Assembly (NCBI GenBank): GCA_005788145.1
Contig: SXYY01000127.1
Span: forward strand, 1-45,654
Direction: 5' to 3'
Length of the DNA: 45,654 nucleotides
Source of the DNA: Bacteroidota bacterium
GTDB lineage: Bacteria > Bacteroidota > Bacteroidia > NS11-12g > UBA955
Shown here: positions 24,823-40,917 of the stretch, one piece after another
Position numbering within the stretch: position 1 is the first letter of the stretch
How the letters are laid out: each line of letters begins with the position of its first letter
Notes under the pieces: model-generated
Told to the model about the DNA's origin: nothing
Databases searched by the model: none
What the model saw: only the letters and a program-made list of their open reading frames with translations
Position numbers and translations under genes: made by a program

Positions 24823-25524
24823 CTATTTACGTGCTCTCATCAGCCCTGAACTTTTTGGGAAATACGCAATCAGGGGCTGTAAATTTGACAATATCTGAGA
24901 ATATGGCGCTGTGCGCAGCTCGTCATAGGTATTGGCACCTGTAAGCACACCCACGTTCCAGGCGCAACCTGCTGAGAAACCTTCATACAAATCGCTAACT
25001 GTATCACCAACCTTCATGACCAAGTGGGAATATTCCACCCCTGAGCGCTTCATGGCCAATCGAATCATATCGGGTTGTGGTCTACCAGCATCCACTTCAT
25101 CGCTGCCGATGTAGCCATGGATCATTTTTTCCAATGCCAAGTTTCTCACGATGACGTCGGCAACTTGTCGATTAAAACCAGTATTCAAGTATACTTTGGC
25201 CCCACTATTTCTGATGGCTTCGAACAATTCTGCCGCATAAGGCATTAGTTCGATACTGCCTTTGACGCCATACTTCTCAATCAACTGTTGGTTAAAAAAC
25301 CCCACCAACTCATCAATAATATCTGCCGTAACCATAGTTTTGTTCAATGAACAAAGCTGTTCAAAAGCCGTTTTCTTGGGAATACCCATGACTTTGTTGG
25401 CTTGATCCATGGAGATATTAATATTCAACTTCCATTTCATGGCATCAATTGCTGCTTGCTGCACCAATCCAAAATCATTGACAGTTGTACCTGCCATGTC
25501 CATTACTACCAATTGGGGTTTCAT
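24823..25524 (-). CDS. Phosphonatase-like HAD hydrolase (PhnX-like, TIGR03351-type)
   Basis: Preferred start MKPQLVV (ORF opens at 25545). Motif I is DxAGT ('VVMDMAGTTVND') rather than DxDxT. Motif III has Arg ('DAGRPQPDMI') rather than Lys. Motif IV is 'VGDTVSD'. There is a cap-domain Lys in 'MGIPKK'. These are the distinguishing features of phosphonoacetaldehyde hydrolase and its closest relatives. Confidence 0.75.
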   Translation of the reverse strand: MKPQLVVMDMAGTTVNDFGLVQQAAIDAMKWKLNINISMDQANKVMGIPKKTAFEQLCSLNKTMVTADIIDELVGFFNQQLIEKYGVKGSIELMPYAAELFEAIRNSGAKVYLNTGFNRQVADVIVRNLALEKMIHGYIGSDEVDAGRPQPDMIRLAMKRSGVEYSHLVMKVGDTVSDLYEGFSAGCAWNVGVLTGANTYDELRTAPYSQILSNLQPLIAYFPKSSGLMRARK

Positions 25525-25647
25525 GAACGCAAAGGAACCGTGCAATTAAGAATTTAAAATTAAATCTCTGTTAAATACCACAATCACGAAAAAGGGTAAC
25601 ATCGATGTAACAATCAAGCCAAATCGTGTTGGGTAATTGCGGCCTTT

Positions 25648-26595
25648 ATGAAGATTGCTATTTTGTATGCAGAAAGTCGGTTTACACCTTGGAGAGAAAA
25701 CATCGACACCAACACAGTGATTACACTTCACAAAGCATTACCCAAAAGTGCAAACGGGACCATCATTCACATGACAAAACCCAATGAAGATTTGGTCAAA
25801 TTATTATCTAAATTCGACTTCGTAATCAACTTGTGTTACGGGTACTACCATTTTTCACAAGCCGATGTAGCTGAGTGGCTAGACCAAAACAACATCAAAC
25901 ATTTGAGCAGCGGAGGCACTCAACAACAAATGGCTCAAGACAAATTATATGTAGAGACTATACTTGGCGAATACAAAATCGCAGTTCCCAAGTCCATTCA
26001 ACATTTATCGGAAATATGCCAAGGATTGTACATATCCAAACCCAGAAAAGGGGGCTGTCACCGCGGCATTGAAATTACCGATGCACATACCGCGAGGACA
26101 AAGTTTGATTTGAATTGTACCGAGGACAAACTCACACAGCCCTATCTGATCGGACGTGAATTTAGCGTTGCTATTATTCCCAATGAAGGAGGTACAGGTT
26201 TTGAAACACTCCCACCTTTGGAGGTGATTCCTTACCCCAAAAGAACCATTTACCTGGCGGGGCAATCGCATGGTAAAACAAGAAAAAACTACCACCCCCT
26301 ACTTAGTTTTACCGAAAAAGACAACATCATCGATGCATGTCTAACCGCCCACAAAGCGCTGGGATTAACATTTTACTCAAGGGTAGATGTGCGATTGGTT
26401 GGCGATACCGCTTTCGTCTTGGATGTCAATACCATGCCCAACATGCATCCAACAAAAAGTATGTTGCCGGGACTTTTGAAAACCCACAAAATTGGCATGC
26501 GTGAATTTGTAAAGCGTATAATTTCTATGGGACAGCATATTTACAACACCAACATGGAACCCAAGTTAGCGGAATATATACAAACCACATCGTAA
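25648..26595 (+). CDS. ATP-grasp ligase, D-alanine--D-alanine-ligase-like
   Basis: 315 aa. Ddl-like elements are 'YISKPRKGGCHRGIEI' (compare KP..GSS.G), 'REFSVAII' and the Mg/ATP site 'SRVDVRL...FVLDVNTMPNM' (compare RVDF...EvNT.PG). It lacks the usual Ddl N-terminal motif, so it is divergent. Confidence 0.65.
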   Translation: MKIAILYAESRFTPWRENIDTNTVITLHKALPKSANGTIIHMTKPNEDLVKLLSKFDFVINLCYGYYHFSQADVAEWLDQNNIKHLSSGGTQQQMAQDKLYVETILGEYKIAVPKSIQHLSEICQGLYISKPRKGGCHRGIEITDAHTARTKFDLNCTEDKLTQPYLIGREFSVAIIPNEGGTGFETLPPLEVIPYPKRTIYLAGQSHGKTRKNYHPLLSFTEKDNIIDACLTAHKALGLTFYSRVDVRLVGDTAFVLDVNTMPNMHPTKSMLPGLLKTHKIGMREFVKRIISMGQHIYNTNMEPKLAEYIQTTS

Positions 26596-26666
26596 TGTTC
26601 AGGCAAACAGAATAACAACATTTGCGTAACCCTCAAAAAATGAGCACGTTGTATTATTGAGGATTA

Positions 26667-27410
26667 ATGCGTATGTCAAACACACTACCAAAGCTTGTTA
26701 TATTGCCCCTGGTAGATTTGATAATCGACGAAGCAAAGCCCCTTATTTCTATATACCAGAACACCCTAAAGGCCGAACACATAGCATCTGACGAATGGGC
26801 CTTGGGCGAATTGATAGGCAAGCCAATCGGGGAGGTTGTAAATACGATGTGTCATCGCGGGACATCAAATTTTAGTGAAGAAAATATATCTCGACTGACC
26901 AATAACATCAGTGAGCAATTTACCGTTTTGTTAGGTTCTAAACCAAAAACACCTTACTCAAAAGAAGTGCATGTATTCTTAGATTCAATTAGGTCAAAAG
27001 GGTTAAAAATCGGTGTAACATCCTGGCTGAACAAAGAGACAACGGAAATCGCATTAAAGGCAGCAAATTTATGGGATCGCATCGATGGCCATACGCATGG
27101 CAATTCCGGATATCATCATGGAACATCTCCGGATATTATATTCACCTTGATGCGACAAATTGGCATAGATAATAGCGATCACGTAGCCAATGTGGGCAAA
27201 ACCAAATATGATGTATTGCGTGGTTATCACGCCCAATGTAAATGGAATATTCTAATTGCGAGCGACAAAGATAATACACGATGGAACGCATATCCCCACA
27301 CGGCAATCGTAGGATCCATCAAAGAAGCGGCGTCTGAAATTATGAGTAAATCGGTCGGGTCTGATTTTTTCGATATACTCAACAAAAAAAATCGCAAGAG
27401 GGGAAAATAA
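26667..27410 (+). CDS. HAD-fold protein paralogous to the PhnX-like hydrolase, with catalytic residues substituted (probable pseudo-enzyme or neofunctionalised)
   Basis: By-eye alignment to ORF 24823-25524. 'LVVMDMAGTTVND' aligns with 'LVILPLVDLIIDE', so the nucleophile Asp becomes Pro. 'AIRNSGAKVYLNTGFNR' aligns with 'SIRSKGLKIGVTSWLNK'. 'GRPQPDMIRLAMKRSGV' aligns with 'GTSPDIIFTLMRQIGI', so Arg becomes Thr. 'KVGDTVSDLYEGFSAGC' aligns with 'NVGKTKYDVLRGYHAQC', so Asp becomes Lys. Confidence 0.55.
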   Translation: MRMSNTLPKLVILPLVDLIIDEAKPLISIYQNTLKAEHIASDEWALGELIGKPIGEVVNTMCHRGTSNFSEENISRLTNNISEQFTVLLGSKPKTPYSKEVHVFLDSIRSKGLKIGVTSWLNKETTEIALKAANLWDRIDGHTHGNSGYHHGTSPDIIFTLMRQIGIDNSDHVANVGKTKYDVLRGYHAQCKWNILIASDKDNTRWNAYPHTAIVGSIKEAASEIMSKSVGSDFFDILNKKNRKRGK

Positions 27411-27477
27411 TCTTTACTTAATACCAAGCACCCATTAATCAAACAGTGAAACGATTAATTCGCCAAACAATTTCACT

Positions 27478-28323
27478 GTGAATTTACATACGCATACAGA
27501 CTTCTGCGACGGCAAAAGCTCGCCCGAAGACTTTGTAAAAAAGGCCATTTCTCTTGAGTTTAAATATTTGGGATTCAGCGCGCACGCGCCATTGCCTTTC
27601 CTTTGTGATTGGAGTTTACCCACAGAGCGTTTGGATTCATACTGTGTTGAAATTGCACGCTTGAAAGCGCACTATCAAAAAAAACTACAGATACTTCACG
27701 GCTTTGAAATCGACTTCCTCGAAGGAATGGGTTTTCCATGCTTAACGGAAGATGCCGTTTGCGGGGCTGATTTCTTTATTTGTAGCATACACTTTTTAAA
27801 AACGCCACAATCCGCGATCACATCGCCAAAGTTTGCTGAGATAGACGGAAACTATGCGCAATTTATGTTGGCGATGAAAAGTCATCAATATTCGCTGAAA
27901 AAAATCCTCAGCAACTACCTAAACGCAACCGAACAAATGATCCTCACGCCCCTTGTTGCTGGCATGGTGAAGATCATCGGACATGTTGACAAAATCGTAT
28001 TAAACGCAACGCAACTACCTGAATTTGAAGGACTTAGCGAGTGGTTTTACGAAGAACTATTCAATATTTTAATTCAGCACAGGGGTCATTATCATTCAAT
28101 TGAAATCAACACCAGGGCATTATATAAAAAAGGATTATCACAGCCATATCCGCGCTACAACCTTTTGGAGATGTTGGCAAACCAAAATGTTCCGTTAATC
28201 ATCAACAGCGATGCACACCACCCATCCGAATTAAATGCAGGTTACAAAGAAACCGTTGAAAGGCTAGAATCGCTCACCACAATCAATATCAAAAATCTCC
28301 ATTACAAATGGTTAAAGAAATAA
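27478..28323 (+). CDS. PHP-domain metal-dependent phosphoesterase (HisJ / histidinol-phosphatase family)
   Basis: 281 aa with a GTG start. PHP His/Asp motifs are 'NLHTHTDFCDG', 'GFSAHAP', 'CSIHFL', 'IIGHVDKI', 'IEINT' and 'INSDAHHPSEL'. Confidence 0.75.
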   Translation: MNLHTHTDFCDGKSSPEDFVKKAISLEFKYLGFSAHAPLPFLCDWSLPTERLDSYCVEIARLKAHYQKKLQILHGFEIDFLEGMGFPCLTEDAVCGADFFICSIHFLKTPQSAITSPKFAEIDGNYAQFMLAMKSHQYSLKKILSNYLNATEQMILTPLVAGMVKIIGHVDKIVLNATQLPEFEGLSEWFYEELFNILIQHRGHYHSIEINTRALYKKGLSQPYPRYNLLEMLANQNVPLIINSDAHHPSELNAGYKETVERLESLTTINIKNLHYKWLKK

Positions 28324-29591
28324 ACCAACGGCAACAACTAGTTACTGCAACACTTATTGGATTAACCACATTTTGCCTGTACACTTTTATGTATGCAGTG
28401 CGAAAACCCTTTTCCGCGTTGACATATAACAACATTTTGGTATGGGGTATCAGTGTAAAAATTTGGATGGTACTGTTCCAGCTTCTCGGTTATACCATGA
28501 GCAAATTCTTTGGTATTCGACTACTGGGAAAAATCAAACTTGAGGATCGAAGTATTTACCTCATTTGTATATTGTCACTTGCAACAGTCCCGCTTTTTTT
28601 ACTTCAGCATTTACCCGCCCAATTGTGGCCTGTTTTAATGTTTTTCAACGGATTCCCATTGGGATTGGTTTGGGGAATCGTTTTTTCTTACGTAGAGGGT
28701 AGAAAATATACAGAACTCATTGGGGCGATGTTGGCTTGTACGTTTGTCTTTTCTTCGGGTTGGGTAAAATCGTTTGGTCTTTACTTACAAACTGCCTTGG
28801 AACTAAATATTACCCAAGTACCTTTTTTTACTGCCCTGATTGCACTTATCGCAGCCGCCATAGTGGTATTTGTTTTAGAAAAACTGCCGCCACCCAACAC
28901 TGAGGATAAATTGCTAAGAAACGATAGAAAGCCACTTAATCCTATTGAACAACGACGATTCCTTCAGCTTCATGGTTCCATAATAATTCCCTTTGTCATT
29001 ATTTACGGTATCTTCACCATCATGCGAGACTTCCGCGACAATTTCTCCGCAGAAATGCTGACAGAAAGTGGCGCATATTCTGGCGATGTCTTCATCAATA
29101 TGGAACTGAAAGTATCACTGGTCTTACTATGCCTAGTGCCTTTATTTTCTTGGATTAAAAACCACCGAGTTGCGTTAAATATCACCACCCTATCAATCAT
29201 TGTGGGCATATTCACGGGTCTCACAGCCACATTTTTATTCTTGCAGCACCAAATTTCAATAAAGGGATTGTTAATGTTAACGGGTGGCGGATTTTACTTA
29301 GGATACATTTTAATTAACATCAGCGTAATGGATAGAATCGTCGGTTTTTCAGGAGAATCTGGAAATTCAGGATTCTTGATTTACATCGCCGATAGCGTGG
29401 GTTACTTGTTCTCCTTAATCATTAGCTCATTTGCACTACTCAACAAAATCGACTCGATGAAGTGGACCTCTCTATACATTGATTTAGTCATGGTGGGTTC
29501 TGTTTTCATTGTTATACTCGCGATTACCATACCATATCAACTTAAAAAAACGAAACAATCACACAATGATGCAGAAATTATCAAAGCCTAG
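28308..29591 (+). CDS. 12-TM MFS-like permease (resembles the DUF5690 family seen next to phosphonatase-like genes)
   Basis: 427 aa. I count 6+6 hydrophobic segments split by a charged central loop 'PPPNTEDKLLRNDRKPLNPIEQRR'. It overlaps the PHP gene by 16 nt and the FAD-oxidoreductase gene by 26 nt. The family name is from memory and unverified. Confidence 0.6.
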   Translation: MVKEINQRQQLVTATLIGLTTFCLYTFMYAVRKPFSALTYNNILVWGISVKIWMVLFQLLGYTMSKFFGIRLLGKIKLEDRSIYLICILSLATVPLFLLQHLPAQLWPVLMFFNGFPLGLVWGIVFSYVEGRKYTELIGAMLACTFVFSSGWVKSFGLYLQTALELNITQVPFFTALIALIAAAIVVFVLEKLPPPNTEDKLLRNDRKPLNPIEQRRFLQLHGSIIIPFVIIYGIFTIMRDFRDNFSAEMLTESGAYSGDVFINMELKVSLVLLCLVPLFSWIKNHRVALNITTLSIIVGIFTGLTATFLFLQHQISIKGLLMLTGGGFYLGYILINISVMDRIVGFSGESGNSGFLIYIADSVGYLFSLIISSFALLNKIDSMKWTSLYIDLVMVGSVFIVILAITIPYQLKKTKQSHNDAEIIKA

Positions 29592-30702
29592 GGCCATTGT
29601 AGTTGGGGCTGGCATTTTGGGACTTGCCTATGCGAGATCCCTGAGTCTACGCGGATATGTCGTGGATGTATTTGAGCGATCTGAAAAGGCCAGCGGCTCA
29701 TCGATCAGAAATTTCGGCATGGTATGGCCAATTGGTCAGCCGAATGGCAAGTTTCTTAATCGCGCAATGAAGTCCCGAGAAATTTGGATTGAATTATGCA
29801 AGTCTGCCAAAATTTGGCATAAACAAACAGGTAGTTTACAACTCCTTTCCAACGAATTGGAATATGAAATGGGAAAAGAATTTATGGAACGAGAATCTAC
29901 GCACCGTCCTAAACTTCAGCTGCTCGACAAACAGCAAACGAAAGCCATATTTCCATTGGCCCACAAAAACAATCGAGGTGCCATTTTTAGTGGAACGGAG
30001 GTTATTGTTGAGGCACGGGAAGCAATCCGACTTATTCCAGCGTACCTAGAAGACCAACACGGTGTGAAATTTCATTTTAACACGCCGGTGGTTGAGATTG
30101 CGAATGGATTTATTTGCACGGCTAAAAAACACCGTTTCGAAGCAGACATAATCATATTGTGCAGTGGTTATGAAACCAACTTATTATACCCAGAGGTCTA
30201 CGAGTCGGCCCCCATTACAATCAGCCATCTGAACATGTTAAGAAGCCATCGGTTATCGCACACGATTCCGGCAATTTGTGCTGGATTGAGTTTTTTGCAT
30301 TATGGCAGTTACGACAGACTACCCTCTTCGGCTATTTACAAAAAATGGGCTACAGACAATTACCCCAAACAAGTATATCACGGGATTCATCTTCTAATAA
30401 GCCAAAATTACAACAATCAACTAACCATTGGCGACAGTCATGATTATGGAATGCATCACGACCCTTTCCAAAAAGATGATGTTGATCAATTGATTTTGGA
30501 TTACATGAATGATGTAATGGAAATTCCCAATCTGCAAATTTCACAGAGATGGACTGGCCAATATCTAAAAATGCAGAACGGACAGAGTGAGTGGTTTGAG
30601 GAAATAGCATCGGGGGTATATTTGGCAAACGGTCCTGGTGGCGCTGGCATGACATTGGGTTTCGGCATGGCCGAAGACACCATTAGTCAAATGATCGGTT
30701 AA
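29566..30702 (+). CDS. DAO-family FAD-dependent oxidoreductase (TIGR03364-type, phosphonate-associated amine oxidase)
   Basis: Preferred start MMQKLSKPR (ORF opens at 29509 inside the permease gene). Rossmann motif 'AIVVGAGILGLAYARSL...VFERSEKASGSSIRNFG' and a C-terminal 'GPGGAGMTLGFG' typical of DAO/PF01266 enzymes. The phosphonate context is the known partnership of TIGR03364 with TIGR03351. Confidence 0.72.
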   Translation: MMQKLSKPRAIVVGAGILGLAYARSLSLRGYVVDVFERSEKASGSSIRNFGMVWPIGQPNGKFLNRAMKSREIWIELCKSAKIWHKQTGSLQLLSNELEYEMGKEFMERESTHRPKLQLLDKQQTKAIFPLAHKNNRGAIFSGTEVIVEAREAIRLIPAYLEDQHGVKFHFNTPVVEIANGFICTAKKHRFEADIIILCSGYETNLLYPEVYESAPITISHLNMLRSHRLSHTIPAICAGLSFLHYGSYDRLPSSAIYKKWATDNYPKQVYHGIHLLISQNYNNQLTIGDSHDYGMHHDPFQKDDVDQLILDYMNDVMEIPNLQISQRWTGQYLKMQNGQSEWFEEIASGVYLANGPGGAGMTLGFGMAEDTISQMIG

Positions 30703-31234
30703 CCATCAAACATTCGGCCAAATCGGCCCAAACGCTTTCAGGAATTTCCGTATCCAAATCAATGCGTTTACCCGTATCATCCCATCTGCGCAAATTGAGC
30801 GCCTGGTGAAAACAAGGGTGTTTTCTGGCTTCCGCAACCTCATCGTCTGACATCAGTCCACCTTGCAGCTGAAAGCTCTTCAAGCTTGCAGCAGTAAGGC
30901 GGTTGATGTAATATGGTTCACAACTCACCAAATATCGCTTCGCCCAAACATGGCTAGCCACCATACTTGATACCTTTTCCCCGAAACCCCATTCCAACAA
31001 CAAAGCCGCCCCTATCTCTTCGTGTTTCATATCTTGGGAGTACCCATCTATTTCCTGATAGGCCAAGTGTCCAACATCATGTAAAAACGCAGCCACCCGC
31101 AATTCCAATTCGGCGTGTGCTTCTAAGGCTAACAGGTAACACTGAACTGCATGTTCCTGTTGGGTCACGTCTTCGCCATAGGTATGCTGCCCATGATCGC
31201 TGAATAAGGCTTTGATTTTCTCTATGATTTCCAT
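30683..31234 (-). CDS. phnZ: PhnZ-like HD-domain (di-iron) phosphonate oxygenase
   Basis: 183 aa. The ligand pattern 'QQEHAVQC', 'FLHDVGH', 'HEEIGA', 'ASHVWAKRYLV' and 'LRRWDDTGK', plus 'LQGGLMSDDE', matches what I remember of PhnZ / TIGR03276. Its 3' end overlaps the convergent FAD-oxidoreductase gene by 20 nt. Confidence 0.68.
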   Translation of the reverse strand: MEIIEKIKALFSDHGQHTYGEDVTQQEHAVQCYLLALEAHAELELRVAAFLHDVGHLAYQEIDGYSQDMKHEEIGAALLLEWGFGEKVSSMVASHVWAKRYLVSCEPYYINRLTAASLKSFQLQGGLMSDDEVAEARKHPCFHQALNLRRWDDTGKRIDLDTEIPESVWADLAECLMVNRSFD

Positions 31235-31244
31235 TTGATTTATT

Positions 31245-31277
31245 TAAAAAAGGGGAGTAGAATTAACCACTCCCCCT
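31245..31277 (-). terminator. Terminator-like hairpin between susD-like and phnZ-like genes
   Basis: In minus-strand sense the sequence is GGGGAGT-(10 nt)-ACTCCCC (31252-31258 and 31269-31275), followed by TTTTTT and then only 11 nt before the phnZ-like ATG. It starts 34 nt after the susD stop. Confidence 0.55.
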
Positions 31278-31309
31278 TACTAACTATTAAACCAATTCAA
31301 CTACTTTGA

Positions 31310-32896
31310 TTATTTCAAAATCCACATATCTGCATTGATCTCGTCTTTTCCACCGAATTGACGATCCAAAGCCGCTTGCCAGTTTGCCGCATTGTTTGTT
31401 CTCTCACCCGTAGGATATTGGTATCTTTTTGGGATAAGACCACTATTTCCCGTTCCTGGGCCATTGGCTGAAAAAGTAGGATAATTTGTCCTACGGTTAT
31501 TGTAATACCCTTCCAAGCCACTATTCTGGAAGAAAGACAAATACTTTTGTGTTATGATTTGTCTCAAACCATTTTCGCCCGCACCTGCATATTTCACCGA
31601 AACCTGATTAAAGTAGGCTGCTTCATCAAAGATATACGTATTCTTGATGTAATCGGCGGCATTTGTTGGTGTACCACCATTTCTGAAAGCATACACGTCC
31701 ATTGCCCCATTTTTTACACCGAAGAAATCAAAACTTGCTTTAATCCCTTTTTCGTACCATGTAGAGGCGTTTTCAGAAATCCAACCGCGGTGAGCTGCCT
31801 CAGCGATATTGAAACACATTTCTGAATAGCCAATTTGAATACCAGGCTCAGCGGTGAAAGTTCTGTAGTAACGGTAACGATTGTACAATGAATATTCTCC
31901 ATTCAAGAAATTACCACCGTTAGACACCTGCATTTTCGTAGACATATCAGCCAAATCCTGATTGGCATCCGCACCCACAAAAGAAGCAAAATCAGTGTAT
32001 CCAGAACCAGCCTTTAATTTGGCACCTGCAGGCTCTGCGATAACAAATACGCGGGGATCCTTCAAGTAAGTCAATACAGACAAATTGGTAGACGACATGT
32101 TGTAACGCAAAGCATCAAAACCATAATTGTCTGGACTTACAGGATACTTATTCAAAGTGCTGTTATATACGAACTGCATATTATCGGCATTTGAAGTAAA
32201 AATTGGATATTTACCGGGATTGGTAACAATGTTGGCAAACTTGCCTTTCACGTTCAAATCCCCGTCTGACTCCTTTTTACTCAAAGCGATCAGCACACGC
32301 AACGCGAAAGTGTTGTTTGCTTTTTGCCAAGCAGCCAAATTATTATTGAAATAAATATCACCCGCAAATGAACTATTACCACTTGCAATCAACGTTGCCA
32401 TGTCTGTGTTGGCTTCTTCCAACCAAGCCAAAATCTGCATAAACACCTCCTTTTGAGAATCGTATTTTGGCAGAAAATTGTCGGCCTTCAATGCCTCTGA
32501 CATTGGCACATCACCGGTCAACATGGTCATTTGATAAAACAAATAAGCACGCATGAATTTACCCAAGGCAGAATATGGGTTCACGGCTGGACTTCCAACG
32601 CGCTTTGCCTCCTCTTCCATCTTGATTACGTTCTTCAGTGTAGTGAAGCTCCATGCACCACCACCCCAATTGTATTCGTTGTTGCCGTAGTAGTTGTAGT
32701 TACACAAATTGTACTGACAAATCCTTGCGTCACCACCCCAAGGTCTTTGATTTATGTTGAAGCAAATCCCGTTTAAAACCAAATCGGGGGTAACTTGCGT
32801 AGGACGGTTTGGATCTTTATCGATGCCGTCTACTGAACAACCATTCATCACCAACAAGGTTAAAGCGGCGATGGATGCGAAAAATATGTTTTTCAT
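31310..32896 (-). CDS. SusD/RagB-family outer-membrane lipoprotein
   Basis: 528 aa. Lipoprotein signal 'LTLLVMNGC', TPR-like N-terminal half ('FMRAYLFYQMTMLTGDVP'), and a position immediately downstream of a SusC-type gene. Confidence 0.85.
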   Translation of the reverse strand: MKNIFFASIAALTLLVMNGCSVDGIDKDPNRPTQVTPDLVLNGICFNINQRPWGGDARICQYNLCNYNYYGNNEYNWGGGAWSFTTLKNVIKMEEEAKRVGSPAVNPYSALGKFMRAYLFYQMTMLTGDVPMSEALKADNFLPKYDSQKEVFMQILAWLEEANTDMATLIASGNSSFAGDIYFNNNLAAWQKANNTFALRVLIALSKKESDGDLNVKGKFANIVTNPGKYPIFTSNADNMQFVYNSTLNKYPVSPDNYGFDALRYNMSSTNLSVLTYLKDPRVFVIAEPAGAKLKAGSGYTDFASFVGADANQDLADMSTKMQVSNGGNFLNGEYSLYNRYRYYRTFTAEPGIQIGYSEMCFNIAEAAHRGWISENASTWYEKGIKASFDFFGVKNGAMDVYAFRNGGTPTNAADYIKNTYIFDEAAYFNQVSVKYAGAGENGLRQIITQKYLSFFQNSGLEGYYNNRRTNYPTFSANGPGTGNSGLIPKRYQYPTGERTNNAANWQAALDRQFGGKDEINADMWILK

Positions 32897-32923: not shown

Positions 32924-35900
32924 TCAGAAAGTCAAATTAATGTTAACACCGTATCTTCTCATGGTTGGCGACTGCAATGCAGAGTAACCTGTCATTCCGG
33001 GGAATTGATCCAAATCCAAATCATCCAAACCTTTGGCGAAATACAACAAGTTTCTTCCTACCAAGGACACTGAAGCACCTTTGAAGGTCTTACCCAATTT
33101 GGATGCAGGCAAGTTGTAGGTGATGGTTACTTCACGCAACTTCATGTAATCCTTATTCATGATGTTTGGTCCAAATTGACCGTAATAGCGACTGATATAA
33201 TCCTGCAAGTATGTTGGCGTTTCATTTTTCTTGAAAGTCAATTCACCGTAATTGGTGATTTCACCAGTCAAAGGATCATACTTAATGGTTCCACCAGCAA
33301 GCTGTGCACCTTCACCCAACCAAGTCTTTTTGCCTTCTGTATCCGCTTCACGTGCAGAGGCCATTGTATTACCGTTGGCATCAACGATGTTTCCTTGAAC
33401 TGTTTCGATATGTCTACCACCGCGGTATGTCTGACGTTGAATTTGGTTCACAATCAAACCACCCACACGGCCATCGAATTGTACACCGATTGTCCAATTT
33501 TTCACCTTTACCTGGTTGTAGAGGCCAATCACCAAATCAGGCAAAGTATACCCTTGGAATTGTCCTTTTGGCAATACAATAGGACGTCCACCCGCGTCAT
33601 TGATCAACTGTCCGTCAGGGGTTCTTGCAAAATCATTGGTATACAAAGCATCGATACGATCACCCACTTTCAAAAACCGGTTACTAGAGTTATCCGTCAC
33701 GAAATAGTTCGCAGAAATCTGGTTCACATCTCCATAGACGGCTGTCAAGAATTCGCGGTAACGAGACAAGTTCAACATGCTATTCCAAGTTACACCACCT
33801 TTGGTTTTTGCCTTGATCACATCACCTTTGAAGCTCACTTCCCAACCTTTACGCTGTGTTTCAATACCGTTTACGATTTGATTGGTGTAACCAGTTGCTT
33901 CTGAAATGGTTCTTGAGAAGATACCTGGTCCGTCGTTGTAGATATAGTAAGTACCCTCTACACTCAAACGGTTTTTGAATAAACGAACTTCTGATCCAAA
34001 CTCAACATCGGTACGTTGGAATGGGGCCAAACTTGCATTTGGCAATACGTTGGTAAAGTTTGCAGAAGGACGGCCATTGTACAACAAAGGTGTGTTGTAA
34101 ATCCCTGAATTCACGTAAGCAGGTCCTTCGTAAGGTGATGAGTAATTACTGCCATAACCCAAGGTACTTCCTGCTTGAGAAATCAACGGGGTTGTCAAAC
34201 CACCTTTCACTTGAGCAAATGAAGCGCGAAGCTTCCAGAAATTGAAGTTTTTGCTTTTCAAATTTTCAAACATATCCATCGGCAAAATAGAAACCGAGGC
34301 AGAAGGGTAAACAAATGAGTTGTTTCCAGCAGGCATTGTAGACAGTTGGTCCATACGGGCACCCAAGTTCAAATACAAGAACTTTGATCCAATATCTGCC
34401 AAAGCATACAATGAATTTACCGCCATTTTCGAATTAAAGTTGAATACACGAACAGGGTTTGCGCTGTTGGCGAAGTTGTACACTTCAGGTACATTCAAAT
34501 AGTCTGTGGTCGCCCAGCTGCTGTTGTAGTTGAAATCTCTGCGGTTTCCTCCGATGCTAGCATGAACATCCAAACCGCCCAACTTCTTTTTGTAATCCAA
34601 CAAAAATTCGTTGTTGATTTCGAACATCGCTCTGCGGTCCTCGCGGTAATCACCACGTCCTTCCTCACGGCCATAGGGGTGAGCAGAAAATGGCATTTTT
34701 TCAGTACGCAACAAATCATACGTGGTTGCAGATGTTCTTACCATCAAGTTGATATTTTTGGTAACATCCCAATCAAAGCTGGTGTATCCATACAAATCAT
34801 TCTTGTAGTGACCTCTCAACCACTTTTCGGCCACGAACCAAGGGTTTTGATAGCGCTTATATTCAGAGTGAAGTGATTGAACACCTTCCTTACCCGGCTG
34901 CCAAATACCACGAATATCATCGCTCATCACATCCCAGTCAGCACCTTGCCAAATAACCACATTGTAAATCAATGAGTTTGGACCATAAACCACATCATTG
35001 ATGTTGTCTGTAGACTGACGGTTATAGTTCACGTTTGCATTCATTCTGAATTTATCAGAGAAACGCACAGTGTTAGAAATATTGAATGTATTGCTGTTCA
35101 ATCCTGTATTTGGTACGATACCACGTTGATTCAAATTGCTAAATGAAAAACGCACATCCATCTTCTCAGTAGAAGAAGCAATACTGAAGTTGTTGGTATT
35201 CAACAAACCCGCTTGCAAAAAGCGCTGAAGGTTGTTTTTACCTCTTGCAACAAAGGGTGTAGGAATGCGCTTACCGGTAACTGGATCGATAGGACTGTCA
35301 TATTGTGCGATCAATTGTCCGTTCAATTTCGGACCCCAAACATCATAGTCACCATCGTTATCGCCACCACCCAAACCATCAACAAATGAATAGTTACCAT
35401 GGTCACCAGGACCGTATTCGTCTTGCACCTTAGGAATGGTCAAGAAACCATTTTCCATGATGGTAGACGAGTTAAAGTCAATAGAAACACCTTTGCCCTT
35501 GCTGCCTTTTTTGGTTGTAATTACTATCGCACCGTTCTGACCTCTGTAACCATATAATGCAGCTGCCGCAGGACCCATCAATACCGATACCTTGTCGATA
35601 TCATCAGGAGACAAGTTATAAGCATCTGAGTTAATGGGAATACCATCAATCACGTACAACACTGATTGTCCACGACGCAGATCACTTCCACGAAGCACGA
35701 TTTGTGGGTTTCCCAACAACTCAGCACTTTGTCCGATCGTTAAACCTGCTACCTTACCCACCAAGTTGTCGATGACGTTCGTTTCACGCGCTTTTACCAA
35801 TGTTGCTCCATCCACTTCAGCAATCGCAAAACCCAACTTCTTTTTTTCCTTTTTGATACCCAAGGCGGTAACAACGACCTCTCCCACACGCGCCGTGTCG

Positions 35901-36001
35901 GTATCGTTGTTCGCTTGTTGTGCGAGAGAAGCATTGGCAGCCATGGCCAACGCAACCGTCACAAACATGCGATTGGTTGATAAAATGTTTTTCGTTTTCA
36001 T
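32924..36001 (-). CDS. SusC/RagA-family TonB-dependent outer-membrane transporter
   Basis: 1025 aa. After the signal peptide comes 'VVVTALGIKKEKKKLGFAIAEVDG' (SusC TonB-box/plug signature), then 'VLRGSDLRRGQSVLYVIDGIPI'. The C-terminus is 'RRYGVNINLTF'. No N-terminal carboxypeptidase-regulatory or STN domain is visible. Confidence 0.9.
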   Translation of the reverse strand: MKTKNILSTNRMFVTVALAMAANASLAQQANNDTDTARVGEVVVTALGIKKEKKKLGFAIAEVDGATLVKARETNVIDNLVGKVAGLTIGQSAELLGNPQIVLRGSDLRRGQSVLYVIDGIPINSDAYNLSPDDIDKVSVLMGPAAAALYGYRGQNGAIVITTKKGSKGKGVSIDFNSSTIMENGFLTIPKVQDEYGPGDHGNYSFVDGLGGGDNDGDYDVWGPKLNGQLIAQYDSPIDPVTGKRIPTPFVARGKNNLQRFLQAGLLNTNNFSIASSTEKMDVRFSFSNLNQRGIVPNTGLNSNTFNISNTVRFSDKFRMNANVNYNRQSTDNINDVVYGPNSLIYNVVIWQGADWDVMSDDIRGIWQPGKEGVQSLHSEYKRYQNPWFVAEKWLRGHYKNDLYGYTSFDWDVTKNINLMVRTSATTYDLLRTEKMPFSAHPYGREEGRGDYREDRRAMFEINNEFLLDYKKKLGGLDVHASIGGNRRDFNYNSSWATTDYLNVPEVYNFANSANPVRVFNFNSKMAVNSLYALADIGSKFLYLNLGARMDQLSTMPAGNNSFVYPSASVSILPMDMFENLKSKNFNFWKLRASFAQVKGGLTTPLISQAGSTLGYGSNYSSPYEGPAYVNSGIYNTPLLYNGRPSANFTNVLPNASLAPFQRTDVEFGSEVRLFKNRLSVEGTYYIYNDGPGIFSRTISEATGYTNQIVNGIETQRKGWEVSFKGDVIKAKTKGGVTWNSMLNLSRYREFLTAVYGDVNQISANYFVTDNSSNRFLKVGDRIDALYTNDFARTPDGQLINDAGGRPIVLPKGQFQGYTLPDLVIGLYNQVKVKNWTIGVQFDGRVGGLIVNQIQRQTYRGGRHIETVQGNIVDANGNTMASAREADTEGKKTWLGEGAQLAGGTIKYDPLTGEITNYGELTFKKNETPTYLQDYISRYYGQFGPNIMNKDYMKLREVTITYNLPASKLGKTFKGASVSLVGRNLLYFAKGLDDLDLDQFPGMTGYSALQSPTMRRYGVNINLTF

Positions 36002-36356: not shown

Positions 36357-38483
36357 CTAAAATCCAATTAACAATTGGAATGCTCTTCCAGGCATAAACA
36401 CCCCAGATCCGTGGGTTTTGTATAGTTGATTGCCCACATTGGTCATGGCAAAATCTACATACACTCCCCGCTGTTGATACCTGCAACGCAGATCGCCAGT
36501 AACATAGCCCGGCGTACCCGCTGCGCCAATTCTATTGTCTTGAATATCGCCCTTGGCCAAACGCTGTTGTGACTTCGCGCCGTACATCGCCAATACAAAT
36601 TGCCATTGTTTATTGGGTCTATAAACCCACTCTGCATGTAACATGGCGGGTGGAATTCTTCGCATGGGCTCTTGCATCGTGTGATTATCTCCTACCGTGA
36701 AAAAGGCCCCAGCCTTTACTTGTGTCTTTTTCCCAATCAGCATTTGAAGATCGCATTCCGCCCCCAAAATTTCCGACTCCCCCACATTTTGTTTAGAATA
36801 AACCGGATAGCCCTGTAAACTGTCTGTGGGCGACTTCACGCGGGAGATTAAACCAGACAGTTGGTTGTGATAAGCACACACAGTGGCCATCGCTCGATCC
36901 GATTTCCATTTGATCCCCAGCTCTTTATTCAAACTATATTCTGGCTCTAGACCGTATTGAGGCAACTCAAACCGAAAATCCACAATGCCCAGAGTGCCCA
37001 AATCATCTACATTCGGACTCCGAAAACTGCTACCTATGTTGCCGTACACATATAAATGGTTGCTCAATTTCCTAGAAGCCGCAACATCAAAAACCACCGC
37101 CTCATTGTTATCTACCACCTCGCCCAACTCAACGGTGGGAATGCGCACCTGTGTACCACTGTATCTCAGCCCAGCCCTCAAAAGTCCGCATTTCCATGAT
37201 TGCGTGGCATATATAAAAGCAGATGTTTGGTTATTGGTGGCGTTGTTCGGATACAAAGCCCTGAGTTCTTTTGCGGTGGCAGTGGTGTGATTGAAATCGG
37301 ACCTTTGAGAAAAAACCCGGTCCACGTAACCGTCAACCCCCATCACATATTGAAAACCCCGTTTTTGCACCCCAAAGATTTTCACCGTAACCAAACGCGT
37401 ATCTACCGAATCTCTTTCGCGCCGCGATGTTACCGCCGCATTCTTTTGAAATGATCGCCATTCGCTCTGACTTTGCTGTCCGCCCACAATCTCCACTTTC
37501 TCAAATATTCCTAGAACATTTGCCCATTCCTTTTTAACATAGGTCAACGAACGCAATTGCAAATCCATGTTGTAATAGGCGTGGTTTTCCAGCACCACTT
37601 TGTGATACACCGGTACATCAAACTGATTGTGGTTCTGGTGTGCAAACGTCCACTTTCCTTGCTTCCCATATACCTGAAACTTCCCATCAAAATTCCGCTC
37701 ACTATAGCCAGTTGGTGTGAGTTGTGCTTGATCACCCCCCGCAACGATGTTCCCAAAATTCCGTAAGGTACCGCCCAAGGTCAAACCAAATTTGGCCGTC
37801 GCATAATCAATGGATCCGCGGGCAGAAAGTTCTTGTTGGCCAGACATGCCCCTGACAAAAAAATGGGGCACCCACCGATTGAGATTTTTGGTTTCGGGTT
37901 CGTGAAATTTGGCCAAAATCACACCGCCCATCGCATCGGAACCATATTGCACAGCGCCATTGCCAAACAATACCTCCAGCTGATCCAAGCCAAATGCATC
38001 CACCGTATTTAAATACTGATTGGGCCCATACCGAAAAATGGAGTTGTTCAAGCGAATCCCATCCACCATCATCAACGTTTGATTACCCTGAAGTCCGCGC
38101 AGCGTGGGAGAGCCACCGCCGTGGTTGGTTTTTTGTACCAATACCCCAGTTTGATGCATCAGCAACTCTGGGGTAGTTCTGGTTTCACTGCCCGAAACAG
38201 CGCCAATTTTCTTTATATCGGTGCGATATGGCTGCCTTTCCCAAGCCGTTGCCCGCAACAATGTAGCCTCAACCCTCACCTCAGCAAGTTTTTCCGCACG
38301 AAGCGAATCGCCCAGAATAGCCACCTCTTTCATGGCCTCTACAAGGGGCCGAGCCACAAAAATCGAAGAATCAATACTACTATTCGACAAGACCAATGAG
38401 GGACACACAAAAAGCCATCCCCCAAAAAATCCCATGAATAATTTTCTTTTCATCGACATCCTCTGTAGTCGGGAATTAGTCAA
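36357..38483 (-). CDS. TonB-dependent receptor (plug + 22-strand barrel type)
   Basis: 708 aa. Plug motifs 'NHGGGSPTLRGLQGNQTLMMVDGIRLNN' and 'VLFGNGAVQYGSDAMGGVI'. C-terminal 'RAFQLLIGF'. Its start overlaps the upstream phosphoesterase stop by 8 nt. Confidence 0.85.
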   Translation of the reverse strand: MTNSRLQRMSMKRKLFMGFFGGWLFVCPSLVLSNSSIDSSIFVARPLVEAMKEVAILGDSLRAEKLAEVRVEATLLRATAWERQPYRTDIKKIGAVSGSETRTTPELLMHQTGVLVQKTNHGGGSPTLRGLQGNQTLMMVDGIRLNNSIFRYGPNQYLNTVDAFGLDQLEVLFGNGAVQYGSDAMGGVILAKFHEPETKNLNRWVPHFFVRGMSGQQELSARGSIDYATAKFGLTLGGTLRNFGNIVAGGDQAQLTPTGYSERNFDGKFQVYGKQGKWTFAHQNHNQFDVPVYHKVVLENHAYYNMDLQLRSLTYVKKEWANVLGIFEKVEIVGGQQSQSEWRSFQKNAAVTSRRERDSVDTRLVTVKIFGVQKRGFQYVMGVDGYVDRVFSQRSDFNHTTATAKELRALYPNNATNNQTSAFIYATQSWKCGLLRAGLRYSGTQVRIPTVELGEVVDNNEAVVFDVAASRKLSNHLYVYGNIGSSFRSPNVDDLGTLGIVDFRFELPQYGLEPEYSLNKELGIKWKSDRAMATVCAYHNQLSGLISRVKSPTDSLQGYPVYSKQNVGESEILGAECDLQMLIGKKTQVKAGAFFTVGDNHTMQEPMRRIPPAMLHAEWVYRPNKQWQFVLAMYGAKSQQRLAKGDIQDNRIGAAGTPGYVTGDLRCRYQQRGVYVDFAMTNVGNQLYKTHGSGVFMPGRAFQLLIGF

Positions 38484-40917
38484 TATCCATGGCCTTCACC
38501 CAAGGGGCCTGCCTCAACGTGGGCAATTTGGCTCGCTCTCCCTTCACGTACTTCCACAATATTTCATTCATGAGTTGTTCGTTGGCACGATCTTCACGCG
38601 ACAAATCCAATTTCTCGCTCATGCGCATCAAATACGAGGTGGCTTTGGGATTGGAGGCAGAATTCACCTCGTTCAAGTCAACCTCAGCGGCTACAAAATT
38701 GAATCCTTTCCGATTCACCGTATCTGAAAAACATCGCCACATGGGCTCGGCGCCCGCATCGTACTGACTCATAGGCGGCATACCCAAAATCAACTCCATG
38801 GTACGCAGCATCGAACTCGTGCTGTACTTGGTGTGATCCACAAACCCTCTTTTCACCATGCCCCCGGCAACATAGGCCGTGGAGCGATGCGCATCGATGT
38901 GATCCGCGCCGTTCTGTGCATCGTCTTCCAAAATGAATACCACACTCTCGCTCCAAATGGGCGACTTCGACAAATAATCTACAAACAATCCCACCGCCAA
39001 GTCGTTATCTGCCACATGGGCAAATGGCGTAGGCCTTCCCTTCCTAACCCCTTCGGTGTGGTCATTGATAAAACGCAAAGTATTCAGTGCAGGGACCTCA
39101 TTGATCGCCAACAAACTATCGAAATCGCGACGCCATTGGTGAAACCTAATGCTATCTTTCACGGACTCATCCCATGATGTAAAATATGTGCAATGCTGAT
39201 TTTCGAGTACTGGGATGTTGGGCTTGTAATCGTCAACAAACTCTCCATAGCTACGAAAAGAAATACCTGCGCGCTTGGCATAATCCCATAGATACCCTTT
39301 TTGTGGAGCCGCAACAGCAGATTGCCCTTCGTAAACATATTCGCCGCCCCTTCCACCGTAATACGTCGGCCATGTTTTTTCGGTGTAATCGTTGGCATAC
39401 GCGCCTGTGCTCCACATGTGTCCATCCGCACTCACTTCGGCATCCACGTAAAAATGATCAAGTAAGACAAACTCCTCACACAATTTATGTTGATTTGGGG
39501 TAATGTCTCTCCCAAATAATAACAAAGACGTATCACCATCGCCGCCAGCCAAATCAGACAATACTTGGTCGTAGGTTCGATTTTCTTTGATAATATAAAA
39601 CACATGTTTGATGGGCGATGAATCCCCCACGCGGTTCGGTATGGGATTTTCTTCGGGAATATCCAAGATGCGGCCCTGAGCGCTAGCGAGGGGAGTATTG
39701 GCATAGACCTTCGCAGTATTTTCTGCGAGCAATTGTATTTCTATGACTTGCTCGATATTCATTAGTTGCAAACCACCCCGAAACAAACTACCGATGTATT
39801 CTACCTTATCCACATACTCCACTTTGATAGTGGACCCTTGGCCTTGCTGATACACTGTCCGGGTCTTTTTCTGCGCGGGATTTGGACCTTTCGGATTTGC
39901 TTGTGATCCAAACCCCTTGCCATTGGCAACCACCAGTTGATCGCCCCAAACCGCTACCTGGGTGGGATACCATCCGGTAGGTACGAACCCTTTGAGTCTA
40001 TATTTTCCGTAGGTTTTCACATCAAATACCGCCAATGCATTGTTATCGGCATTGGCCGCCAAAAGAATCCCTTTGTTCTGCATCAAACACAGTGCATTGG
40101 TACCGCTACCCGTTAGACTCGTTCCAAACAACCCCGCCGCAAGAACCTCCACCGCGTTGCCTTTTTTCAGATGAATAACATGTACAGAATTATCGTCGGA
40201 ACAAGCCACAAACAATCGCTTCCCTTTGGTATCGTATATCATTTCATTGGGATTATCACCCACCACAATTTTGGGTTCCCACTGATTTAATCGCGCATTG
40301 AAAACACCCACAGAAGCATCGCCCCAGTGACTTACGAAAACTTTATCGCCGCCATCGCCTGTAACACCATAGCCTGCAGAAGGCAATTTCCATTTTTGAC
40401 GCTGACTCACTTCGTTCAAAGAAATTTGATAGAAGCTGGAATCTTCCTTGGTCGCCACATACAATATCCGACGTTTCTCATCTATGTACAATCCCGTGGG
40501 CGAGATGCGCACAGGCCACTGATCTCCCAAATGAATGGAATCGATGTACTTCAACTTGCCGTTGGAAAACTGGTATCTGCCAATCACATTCAAATTGGCG
40601 CCCGTTGAAAACAATTGATTGGTTAAGCCGTCAAACGCCAAACCATAAAAAGTGGCTTTCACCGGTAAACTGTCTGTCATTAATCGCTGCTGCATATCAA
40701 AAACCATCAGCGAATGATCGCTTTGGCCAGCATTGGCGATGATCAAATAGCGATTCGATGGATCCAAAATCATATGCATTGGCAAATCACCCAGAGCATA
40801 TTTATCTCCCCCAGGAGTCAAACGCCAACCGTTGGGCAAATCAGTTTGTGCCTTTAAAGGCGAAAACATTGATGCTAGCAAGACCAGCACTCCGAGCAGT
40901 TTATTTGTGATTTTCAT
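38476..40917 (-). CDS. Secreted fusion protein: N-terminal YncE/YVTN-like beta-propeller + C-terminal phosphoesterase-family (PLC/AcpA, PF04185-type) domain
   Basis: Start MKITNKLLGVLVLLASMFSPLKAQ, which is a signal peptide (ORF opens at 40947). The propeller half has repeats such as 'LYVATKEDSSFYQI', 'LFVACSDDNSVHVI' and 'ILLAANADNNALAVFD'. The phosphoesterase half has 'IKHVFYIIKENRTYDQV', 'DAEVSADGHMWS' and 'ILEDDAQNGADHIDAHRS'. Confidence 0.8.
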   Translation of the reverse strand: MKITNKLLGVLVLLASMFSPLKAQTDLPNGWRLTPGGDKYALGDLPMHMILDPSNRYLIIANAGQSDHSLMVFDMQQRLMTDSLPVKATFYGLAFDGLTNQLFSTGANLNVIGRYQFSNGKLKYIDSIHLGDQWPVRISPTGLYIDEKRRILYVATKEDSSFYQISLNEVSQRQKWKLPSAGYGVTGDGGDKVFVSHWGDASVGVFNARLNQWEPKIVVGDNPNEMIYDTKGKRLFVACSDDNSVHVIHLKKGNAVEVLAAGLFGTSLTGSGTNALCLMQNKGILLAANADNNALAVFDVKTYGKYRLKGFVPTGWYPTQVAVWGDQLVVANGKGFGSQANPKGPNPAQKKTRTVYQQGQGSTIKVEYVDKVEYIGSLFRGGLQLMNIEQVIEIQLLAENTAKVYANTPLASAQGRILDIPEENPIPNRVGDSSPIKHVFYIIKENRTYDQVLSDLAGGDGDTSLLLFGRDITPNQHKLCEEFVLLDHFYVDAEVSADGHMWSTGAYANDYTEKTWPTYYGGRGGEYVYEGQSAVAAPQKGYLWDYAKRAGISFRSYGEFVDDYKPNIPVLENQHCTYFTSWDESVKDSIRFHQWRRDFDSLLAINEVPALNTLRFINDHTEGVRKGRPTPFAHVADNDLAVGLFVDYLSKSPIWSESVVFILEDDAQNGADHIDAHRSTAYVAGGMVKRGFVDHTKYSTSSMLRTMELILGMPPMSQYDAGAEPMWRCFSDTVNRKGFNFVAAEVDLNEVNSASNPKATSYLMRMSEKLDLSREDRANEQLMNEILWKYVKGERAKLPTLRQAPWVKAMDID

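Follow-up and report, generated by a model that had tools for sequence, protein, structure and literature searches.

Genes of the locus

The window analysed here is the whole of contig SXYY01000127.1 (45,654 nt, GenBank assembly GCA_005788145.1), from a Bacteroidota bacterium of the lineage NS11-12g; UBA955. It contains a group of phosphonate-catabolic genes, and among these are three consecutive genes which are the subject of this study. They encode a ligase of the ATP-grasp type resembling D-Ala-D-Ala ligase (Ddl), a catalytically dead HAD protein and a PHP-family phosphoesterase (Table 1). A preliminary description of the sequence had named this trio, and its identifications and distances were exact. 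Gaps of 71 nt and 67 nt separate the ATP-grasp, HAD and PHP genes in turn, and neither gap contains a terminator-like site. The PHP gene then overlaps the gene of a DUF5690 permease by 16 nt, and the permease gene overlaps that of a PbfD-type oxidase by 26 nt (with the oxidase ATG at 29566). A PhnX-like gene is divergent from this putative operon and a PhnZ-like gene is convergent with it. The setting is phosphonate-catabolic, as had been described, with cassette genes flanking the trio. When the window was compared with locus L001 (labels of this form denote the genome loci compared with the window), all three genes were found to be under purifying selection. The ratio of non-synonymous to synonymous divergence (dN/dS) was 0.08 for the ATP-grasp gene and 0.12 for the PHP gene; for the dead HAD gene, dN was 0.205 and dS was saturated.

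The core of this locus is already known, and the three genes are accessories to it. None of the known routes for the breakdown of 2-aminoethylphosphonate (AEP) needs any of the three proteins, which agrees with the preliminary description. That description also treated the trio as a single unit adding steps to AEP breakdown, and here our data did not support it: in comparative genomics the three genes are independent of each other. We consider it probable, with moderate confidence, that this is a Pho-type phosphonate-scavenging locus of a known kind in a freshwater member of the Bacteroidota, and that the trio represents independently acquired accessories and not one pathway. The ATP-grasp protein, which belongs to an uncharacterised family, is the most interesting of the three.

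Distribution of the three genes

We surveyed 80 genome loci of the ATP-grasp family with 10-kb flanks, which gave 65 non-redundant upstream regions. A DUF5690 alignment scan yielded at least 597 genomic loci, and 78 loci further to those above were analysed. Among the ATP-grasp loci, no clade but the closest (L001-L012 and L035, identity 51% or more) shared the gene order of the window, and 58 of the 80 had no phosphonate gene within 10 kb. Not one of the 78 further DUF5690 loci had an ATP-grasp gene within 8 kb, and the cassette lacked the PHP gene in 63 of them. The dead HAD gene is missing from L004 and L005, close relatives in which the rest of the locus is retained and the PHP gene directly follows the ATP-grasp gene. 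In the metagenome-assembled genome (MAG) CANKVM01, a PhoH2 gene and the ATP-grasp gene lie on one contig (L026), and the PhnX-like, PHP, DUF5690 and PbfD genes lie on another (L083).

Table 1. Genes and sequence elements of the window, beginning with the three accessory genes.
Feature	Position	Strand	Details
Ddl-like ATP-grasp ligase	25648-26595	+	315 aa; Dala_Dala_lig_C 1.4e-8, ATP-grasp_3
Catalytically dead HAD, PhnX-like paralogue with basic C-terminal tail	26667-27410	+	247 aa; HAD_2 1.2e-8
HisJ-family PHP metallo-phosphoesterase	27478-28323	+	281 aa, GTG start; TIGR01856 128.7 bits (cut-off 90.2)
DUF5690 inner-membrane permease, 6+6 helix topology	28308-29591	+	DUF5690 4e-102
PbfD-type FAD amine oxidase	29566-30702	+	TIGR03364 352.7 bits (cut-off 285.1); ATG at 29566
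PhnX-like HAD hydrolase, DxAGT motif	24823-25545	-	Best match TIGR03351, 154 bits, below cut-off 218.9
PhnZ-like HD-domain oxygenase (cleaves 1-hydroxyalkylphosphonates)	30683-31234	-	TIGR03276 172.5 bits, below cut-off
Pho-box-like direct repeat GTAACAtcgatGTAACA, 11-bp period	25596-25612	+	52 nt before ATP-grasp ATG
Second Pho-box-like tandem TTTAACAgagaTTTAAT	25559-25573	-	Faces divergent PhnX-like gene
PhoB-type response regulator gene	12125-12811	+	TIGR02154 223 bits and NF053854 (Bacteroidetes PhoB) 223 bits, both below cut-off
Phased TTAAT/TTAAC/GTAAC half-sites before the PhoB-type gene	from 12062	+	At -62, -51, -29, -7
SusD-like outer-membrane uptake protein, PusCD type	31310-32896	-	
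SusC-like outer-membrane uptake protein, PusCD type	32924-36001	-	
TonB-dependent receptor	36357-38483	-	
Large beta-propeller + PF04185 phosphoesterase	38476-40947	-	
Large beta-propeller + PF04185 phosphoesterase	40901-43681	-	

A Ddl-like ligase with an altered substrate site

A word-indexed protein search returned 105 clusters of the ATP-grasp family, and all the source names that gave a taxon were Bacteroidota. An exhaustive profile search against 1.84 billion representatives gave 67 matches at E<=1e-30, of which approximately 20-25 clusters, counted at 50% identity, formed the core family. The AlphaFold2 (AF2) model of the protein was confident (pLDDT 90.4), and its best 50 fold matches in PDB were all of Ddl/VanA type, with TM scores of 0.68-0.77 and 13-21% identity. 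The protein thus shares with Ddl/VanA the three-domain fold, the ATP/Mg residues and the catalytic Arg and Ser. It differs from them in its low identity (about 20%) and in scores far under the family cut-offs: the best NCBIfam Ddl model, NF011169, gave 70.1 bits (cut-off 404) and TIGR01205 gave 37.4 (cut-off 245.65).

To map the residues, the family profile was aligned with hhalign to an E. coli DdlB sequence whose landmark residues all stood at their canonical numbers. The retained ATP/Mg and catalytic residues were, from Ddl to the family, K97 to K99, K144 to K131, E187 to E171, R255 to R245, D257 to D247, E270 to D259, N272 to N261 and S281 to S271. Altered positions were H63 (Y64), S150 (C137), S151 (H138), the omega-loop K215 (G205) and Y216 (Q206), and the GEDG of the HGxxGEDG motif was missing. 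In the E15-S150-Y216 triad which binds the first D-Ala in Ddl (D-Ala1), S150 and Y216 were both replaced; the E15 region fell outside the alignment, and an invariant E17 of the family may or may not correspond to it. The family has signature motifs of its own, NLCYG(F/Y), KPRxGxCHR and LDVN(T/A)MPN, and four conserved basic residues (R133, H138, R139 and R170) at positions that are uncharged in the aligned Ddl. Because the ATP/Mg and catalytic residues are kept and the D-Ala1 site is replaced, the protein is a predicted active, acyl-phosphate-forming Ddl-like ligase with a substrate site predicted to be unlike that of Ddl, and is not expected to be a D-Ala-D-Ala ligase. As judged from these features, the family is currently mis-annotated as D-Ala-D-Ala ligase.

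A distant sister family scored 120-200 bits and had the common motifs NLxYGY / KPRFGxCHR / LDVNALPNL. Its contexts were available for three genome loci only, which were unrelated to each other. In a gammaproteobacterial MAG (L243, 4913-8900), the sister-family gene overlapped the 3′ end of a gene encoding an A-T-C module of a non-ribosomal peptide synthetase, with a PhyH-type dioxygenase gene close by. The other members were found beside glycosyltransferases (L256) and beside a Ser/Thr kinase with TPR repeats (L242). These contexts gave a hint of biosynthesis, without indicating a substrate.

Two specific roles of the ATP-grasp protein were considered and rejected. A serine-glycine lipid (flavolipin) synthase was considered because OlsF/GlsA-B-like genes are adjacent, but the family was missing from well-known flavolipin producers and confined to a few freshwater lineages. 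A RimK-like modifier of ribosomal protein S6 was considered as the S6 gene is 2.5 kb away, but the synteny with S6 did not extend beyond the closest clade, and only Ddl-type proteins were among the fold matches.

Genomic surroundings of the ligase family

At least one gene of phosphorus (P)-starvation type was found within 10 kb at 52 of the 80 ATP-grasp loci. By type, phosphonate genes occurred at 22 loci, phosphatases, phytases or PLC-like enzymes at 18, PhoH2 at 15, PHP at 13, OlsF, PlcP-like or glycosyltransferase genes at 13, and PhoB-like genes at nine. At 15 loci a PIN-PhoH2 gene was located directly upstream of the ATP-grasp gene on the same strand. Arcicella and other Cytophagales had the ATP-grasp gene near a PhoB-like regulator, a PlcP-like metallophosphoesterase and a glycosyltransferase. 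In Saprospiraceae, Runella and Haliscomenobacter, it was near an OlsF-like aminolipid synthase, purple acid phosphatase, an alkaline-phosphatase-like enzyme, phytase and PF04185 proteins. HAD proteins, PhnX-like for the most part, made up 17 of the 118 immediate neighbours. YebC, thiolase and other apparently unrelated genes were also present. Cell-wall genes were not seen beside the ATP-grasp gene at the loci examined. In this respect the family differs from Ddl/VanA: its surroundings are of Pho type instead.

A phased direct repeat upstream of the ligase gene

The repeat GTAACAtcgatGTAACA lies inside the 102-nt divergent intergenic region ahead of the ATP-grasp gene and is the sole exact match in the window. 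Its half-sites were conserved in L001-L005, with a variable spacer. We considered exact GTAACA-N5-GTAACA as a motif of the whole family; it was confined to the closest clade, and a test of degenerate half-site phasing was used instead. In this test, the spacing of TAAC...TAA[CT] half-sites was counted in the 65 non-redundant upstream regions. Half-sites were exactly 11 bp apart in 24 regions and 22 bp apart in 21, and the remaining spacings between 6 and 21 bp were each found in only one to five regions. The controls gave 14% for the opposite strand and 7% for other upstream regions of the same loci. Dinucleotide shuffles gave a mean of 2.0 (standard deviation 1.3, maximum 6), compared with the 24 of 65 observed.

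The genes that carried the motif among the controls were all of P-starvation type, namely those of PhoH2, PhnX-like proteins, OlsF-like proteins, PAP2, TonB receptors, an Exo_endo_phos nuclease/phosphatase and a glycosyltransferase. The motif also preceded five of the 12 leading genes of PHP operons without an ATP-grasp gene. Within the window, phased half-sites stand before the PhoB-type gene; no histidine kinase gene is adjacent to this regulator, which is followed by a pabB-like gene on the opposite strand.

From the repeat architecture and the genes that it precedes, we infer that the phased motif is a PhoB site. Direct repeats with strict 11/22-bp phasing conform to the site architecture of the PhoB/OmpR family, and they precede numerous P-acquisition genes as well as a PhoB-like gene. 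For the half-site consensus seen here, (T/G)TAAC(A), we found no experimental definition in Bacteroidota. Phosphate starvation appears to induce the ATP-grasp family, and GTAACAtcgatGTAACA is a probable activator site of the putative operon of ATP-grasp, HAD, PHP, DUF5690 and PbfD genes.

The PHP phosphoesterase and its permease partner

All the metal ligands of the PHP protein (H4, H6, D11, H36, E77, H105, H169, D245 and H247) were invariant in its family, and it is a predicted intact trinuclear-metal phosphoesterase. Among its relatives, structures have been solved for HisJ-type histidinol phosphatases only (3dcp, 5e-30; 2yxo; 4gc3). It resembles this family (TIGR01856) in scoring above the cut-off and in keeping all the metal ligands, but it differs in being outside a histidine-biosynthesis context. 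Neither the window nor the related loci examined had his genes next to it, and it is tied to DUF5690 either inside or apart from phosphonate cassettes.

PHP was the gene just before DUF5690 in 13 of the 78 further loci. The window clade, L082/L083 and L164-L166 show this arrangement. Of these, L082/L083 and L164-L166 have neither the ATP-grasp nor the dead HAD gene. A second architecture holding PHP had the order PbfD-like/PHP/DUF5690 ... PhnX-like/PhnZ-like. Stand-alone PHP-DUF5690 pairs with unrelated neighbours were found at L095, L102, L119 and L134, and once (L123) the pair was beside a PhnW-like aminotransferase gene. Relatives of the PHP protein with at least 40% identity were found only in these phosphonate loci. 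On gene order, PHP and DUF5690 form a conserved two-gene module. As the position upstream of DUF5690 recurs, the PHP enzyme would be an accessory of the permease and not of the ligase.

Since histidinol phosphate is itself a 2-aminoethyl phosphate carrying a substituent, the PHP enzyme might act on phosphate-ester look-alikes of AEP. By this analogy, its substrate is probably an amino-alcohol phosphate other than histidinol phosphate. A more specific suggestion, to which we give somewhat less than even confidence, is that it might hydrolyse phosphate-ester congeners of the aminoalkyl-phosph(on)ate cargo of the permease, such as phosphoethanolamine or phosphocholine.

The dead HAD protein

The HAD protein had been called dead in the preliminary description, and its catalytic motifs I, III and IV are indeed decayed. 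The DMAGT of motif I in the adjacent PhnX-like protein is PLVDL in the dead HAD, and in the window clade Pro stands in place of the nucleophilic Asp. The Arg of motif III is lacking, and in motif IV GDTVSD has become GKTKYD, with loss of the acidic residues. Against TIGR03351 the protein scored 37.5 bits (cut-off 218.9). In the L007-L012 clade the Asp is retained, and motifs III and IV are still degenerate. The dead HAD clusters with the adjacent PhnX-like protein, and its homologues made up only seven clusters in 5.8 billion proteins. It evolves 2-8 times faster than the neighbouring proteins, yet not neutrally.

Its sequence and distribution mark it as a recent, clade-restricted PhnX-like duplicate that has lost its nucleophile and Mg ligands, and its absence from sister lineages marks it as apparently dispensable there. 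The description that suits it best is that of a young pseudoenzyme, which would have at most a ligand-binding or regulatory role.

Two further observations concern this gene. A Lys/Arg-rich C-terminal tail (…ILNKKNRKRGK; 27380-27410) was conserved in all orthologues of the dead HAD and missing in the active PhnX-like paralogue. In L007 and L009-L012, the clade with 51-54% identity, approximately 780-870 nt lie between the ATP-grasp and dead HAD genes (e.g. L009, 10913-11696), compared with 71 nt in the window; the sole open reading frame (ORF) of this spacer is antisense, about 149 aa long, and has no Pfam match.

The known cassette

Among the 78 further DUF5690 loci, PbfD-like genes were partners in 55, PhnX-like in 49, PhnZ-like in 46 and SusC in 43, and the usual cassette order was PhnZ-like, PhnX-like, DUF5690, PbfD. 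On this evidence, DUF5690 is the predicted hallmark transporter of the PhnX-like/PbfD/PhnZ-like cassette. The search against PDB and a relaxed Pfam scan gave nothing except DUF5690. A single-sequence structure model was unusable (pLDDT 45.8), and only the 6+6 helix topology is given for the permease. A kinship with GlpT/AepP-type transporters would be conjecture. Alphaproteobacteria (Caulobacter, Novosphingobium and Sphingobium; L209, L211 and L224) also had DUF5690 with PhnZ-like or FAD-oxidase neighbours; therefore, the DUF5690 module is not restricted to Bacteroidota.

TIGR03364 corresponds to the PbfD group, whose members carry out the oxidative deamination of N-methyl-AEP and AEP, giving phosphonoacetaldehyde; gene clusters with pbfD and phnX but no phnW are on record (Zangelmi et al. 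2023, PMC10590968). The window agrees with this pathway in having a TIGR03364 oxidase above the cut-off and a PhnX-like hydrolase with the DxAGT motif, without PhnW. The hydrolase is a probable phosphonoacetaldehyde hydrolase. Its true start is probably the ATG at 25524 (MKPQLVV...), because the aligned orthologues begin with MKPQ or MNPK. Unlike the described clusters, the pair in the window is joined to DUF5690, a PhnZ-like enzyme and SusCD uptake, and the ATP-grasp, dead HAD and PHP genes are added. That paper does not mention ATP-grasp, histidinol, permease or DUF5690. We found nothing relevant in the literature on DUF5690, on ATP-grasp or PHP proteins in phosphonate catabolism, or on ATP-grasp proteins in Bacteroidota Pho regulons.

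SusCD-like loci of Flavobacterium under inorganic phosphate (Pi) starvation carry phosphonate enzymes and transporters (Lidbury et al. 2021, PMC8115612). The window has the composition by which PusCD loci are defined in that work: in one locus with its SusCD and TonB transporters lie phosphoesterases, phosphonate enzymes and an inner-membrane transporter. Control by Pi starvation was predicted there, and in the window it is predicted from the motif. The two also differ in that the ATP-grasp family occurred in no named Flavobacterium genome of our scan.

One further ORF of about 195 aa was conserved in the second cassette architecture, between the DUF5690 and PhnX-like genes (L101, 3440-4027; L104, 6228-6818; L125, 12388-12981). 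It had no Pfam match in the single example scanned (L101). It may be an additional uncharacterised component of the cassette.

Proposed roles and alternative explanations

In our proposal, PhoB would activate a promoter around 25596-25612 which drives the ATP-grasp, dead HAD, PHP, DUF5690 and PbfD genes, and in the window all five plus-strand genes are probably read from this one Pho-box promoter. Secreted PF04185 enzymes, together with the SusCD/TonB systems, would free and import head groups, and DUF5690 would move aminoalkyl-phosph(on)ates into the cytoplasm. There PbfD and the PhnX-like enzyme would convert AEP or N-methyl-AEP to phosphonoacetaldehyde and then to acetaldehyde and Pi; the PhnZ-like enzyme might also cleave C-P compounds, and PHP might cleave the P-O congeners. 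The ATP-grasp enzyme would produce an amide product for P starvation. We see about an even chance that it is a PhoB-controlled carboxylate-amine ligase of amino-acid type, making a small amide that is needed under P starvation, and we infer that it stands outside the breakdown of AEP.

Several observations weigh against this proposal. No recognisable P gene was found within 10 kb at 28 of the 80 ATP-grasp loci, and 16 of the 65 non-redundant loci lacked both the motif and any P gene. The ATP-grasp gene adjoins the phosphonate cassette in several apparently independent arrangements: it is divergent from the PhnX-like gene in the window clade, in L029/L032/L038 and in L047, and closes the cassette in Saprospiraceae (L046/L058). 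Relatives of PHP at 30-38% identity lie in housekeeping contexts, those at about 30-35% being mostly generic proteins, and the substrates suggested for this enzyme are purely a matter of analogy. The candidate Pho box is a low-information motif with TAAC half-sites; it may resemble the cyanobacterial Pho box, PyTTAAPyPy(T/A).

A bolder version of our proposal, which we hold to be unlikely, would make the ATP-grasp family a new Pho-box-controlled Ddl-like family with a previously unknown P-starvation reaction, the dead HAD its phosphonate-binding partner in the window clade, and PHP-DUF5690 a new module that imports and dephosphorylates amino-alcohol phosphates. The ligase might, for example, join an amino acid to an AEP or phosphoethanolamine head group, or make a P-free amide that replaces a phosphorylated metabolite.

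Bacteroidota play a major part in mineralising organic phosphorus, both in soil and in fresh water, and a large part of their Pho regulon lacks an assigned function. A family annotated as D-Ala-D-Ala ligase appears to be a phosphate-starvation gene, and it is carried by cultured organisms (Runella zeae DSM 19591, Runella aurantiaca YX9 and several Arcicella species). The phased (T/G)TAACA repeats are a candidate tool for predicting Pho regulons in Cytophagia, Saprospiria, Chitinophagia and Flavobacteriia. The DUF5690 permease marks the PbfD/PhnX-like/PhnZ-like cassette, and the PHP-permease module probably broadens the range of head groups that the PbfD/PhnX-like cassette can use. The analysis also corrects an attractive but unsupported proposal of an AEP pathway.

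Of the other explanations, the one that fared best had been raised in the preliminary description: the trio would process a phosphonate or phosphate head group in ester, acyl or peptidyl linkage, with PHP stripping a phospho- or phosphono-ester from the imported conjugate. PHP-family enzymes include diesterases, the PHP-DUF5690 pairing is conserved, and the PF04185 phosphoesterases and SusCD uptake of the locus suggest substrates of lipid-head-group type. The removal of an ester by PHP is a hypothesis that fits its pairing with the permease; the rest of the trio did not fit. A ligase forms bonds, and an ATP-grasp enzyme has no obvious role in deconjugation; neither this gene nor the dead HAD co-varies with PHP; and the PHP-DUF5690 pairs that stand alone point to a route sufficient in itself, with import and then release of Pi. 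We regard this explanation as rather improbable.

A little less probable again is that the ATP-grasp enzyme uses an aminophosphonate or phosphoamine (AEP or phosphoethanolamine), either as nucleophile or as acyl substrate, to form a phosphono-dipeptide of aminoacyl-AEP type under P starvation, for retention, storage or antagonism, with the dead HAD as a phosphonate-binding partner. Aminophosphonates are classical ligands of the Ddl site. The four extra basic residues relative to Ddl would be consistent with such a substrate, as would the repeated adjacency of the ligase to PhnX-like genes and, in the window clade, the dead PhnX-like paralogue directly after it. However, most members of the family are far from phosphonate genes, and the dead HAD is missing from most of it.

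The preliminary description had also drawn an analogy with the Puu pathway, in which one amine of a diamine is masked so that the other is oxidised. Here the ATP-grasp enzyme would mask the amine of AEP, the DAO-family oxidase would act, and PHP or a HAD hydrolase would finish. In its favour, all three genes run in one direction with little space between them, the ATP-grasp gene leading the operon, and the 22 ATP-grasp loci near a phosphonate cassette show more than one arrangement. This scheme is nevertheless very improbable, because AEP has one amine, the PbfD enzymes use the free amine of AEP or N-methyl-AEP (PMC10590968), and the cassette lacks the ligase at all 78 further DUF5690 loci, being complete without it in most genomes. 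Masking the only amine of AEP would be expected to block the oxidase, and the majority of the ligase homologues are away from phosphonate genes. The ligase is an ATP-grasp protein and not of the glutamine-synthetase fold of PuuA; no PuuA-type enzyme or PuuD-type amidohydrolase was found in the window, and the HAD is dead.

Least probable of all is a chance placement of an ordinary or stress-specific D-Ala-D-Ala ligase isozyme and a true histidinol-phosphatase: the sole solved relatives are Ddl/VanA and HisJ-type enzymes and several database sources use these names, but Ddl models with cut-offs of 243-404 give 70 bits, S150, Y216, HGxxGEDG and K215 are not conserved, at the loci examined the neighbours of the ATP-grasp gene are Pho-type and not cell-wall genes and PHP has no his genes alongside, the Pho-box periodicity speaks against coincidence, and many lineages pair PHP with the permease.

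Other observations in the window

The synonymous divergence from L001 varied by gene: dS was 0.29 for the PhnX-like gene, 0.64 for PHP and PbfD, 1.0-1.2 for DUF5690 and ATP-grasp, and 1.9 for the PhnZ-like gene, with saturation in the dead HAD gene. Such a spread within one operon (24823-31234) suggests a recombination mosaic. A scan of the whole window against Rfam gave zero matches.

Between the SusD and PhnZ-like genes (31235-31309, minus strand) there is a strong hairpin followed by a T-run, AAGGGGGAGTggttaattcTACTCCCCTTTTTT. Because it separates the two genes, the PhnZ-like gene may be transcribed separately from the SusCD unit.

The two PF04185 genes (38476-43681) are paralogues that encode proteins of approximately 820-930 aa, with YncE/beta-propeller repeats and a PF04185 (PLC/AcpA-type) domain, and they overlap by 47 nt. 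Homologues of these proteins directly adjoin ATP-grasp genes in Runella and Haliscomenobacter (L050, L052 and L057). About 355 nt upstream of the first PF04185 gene, at 44035-44051, is the palindromic TGTTAATGAATTATTAACA, which fits the half-site motif on both strands, at an atypical distance from the start codon.

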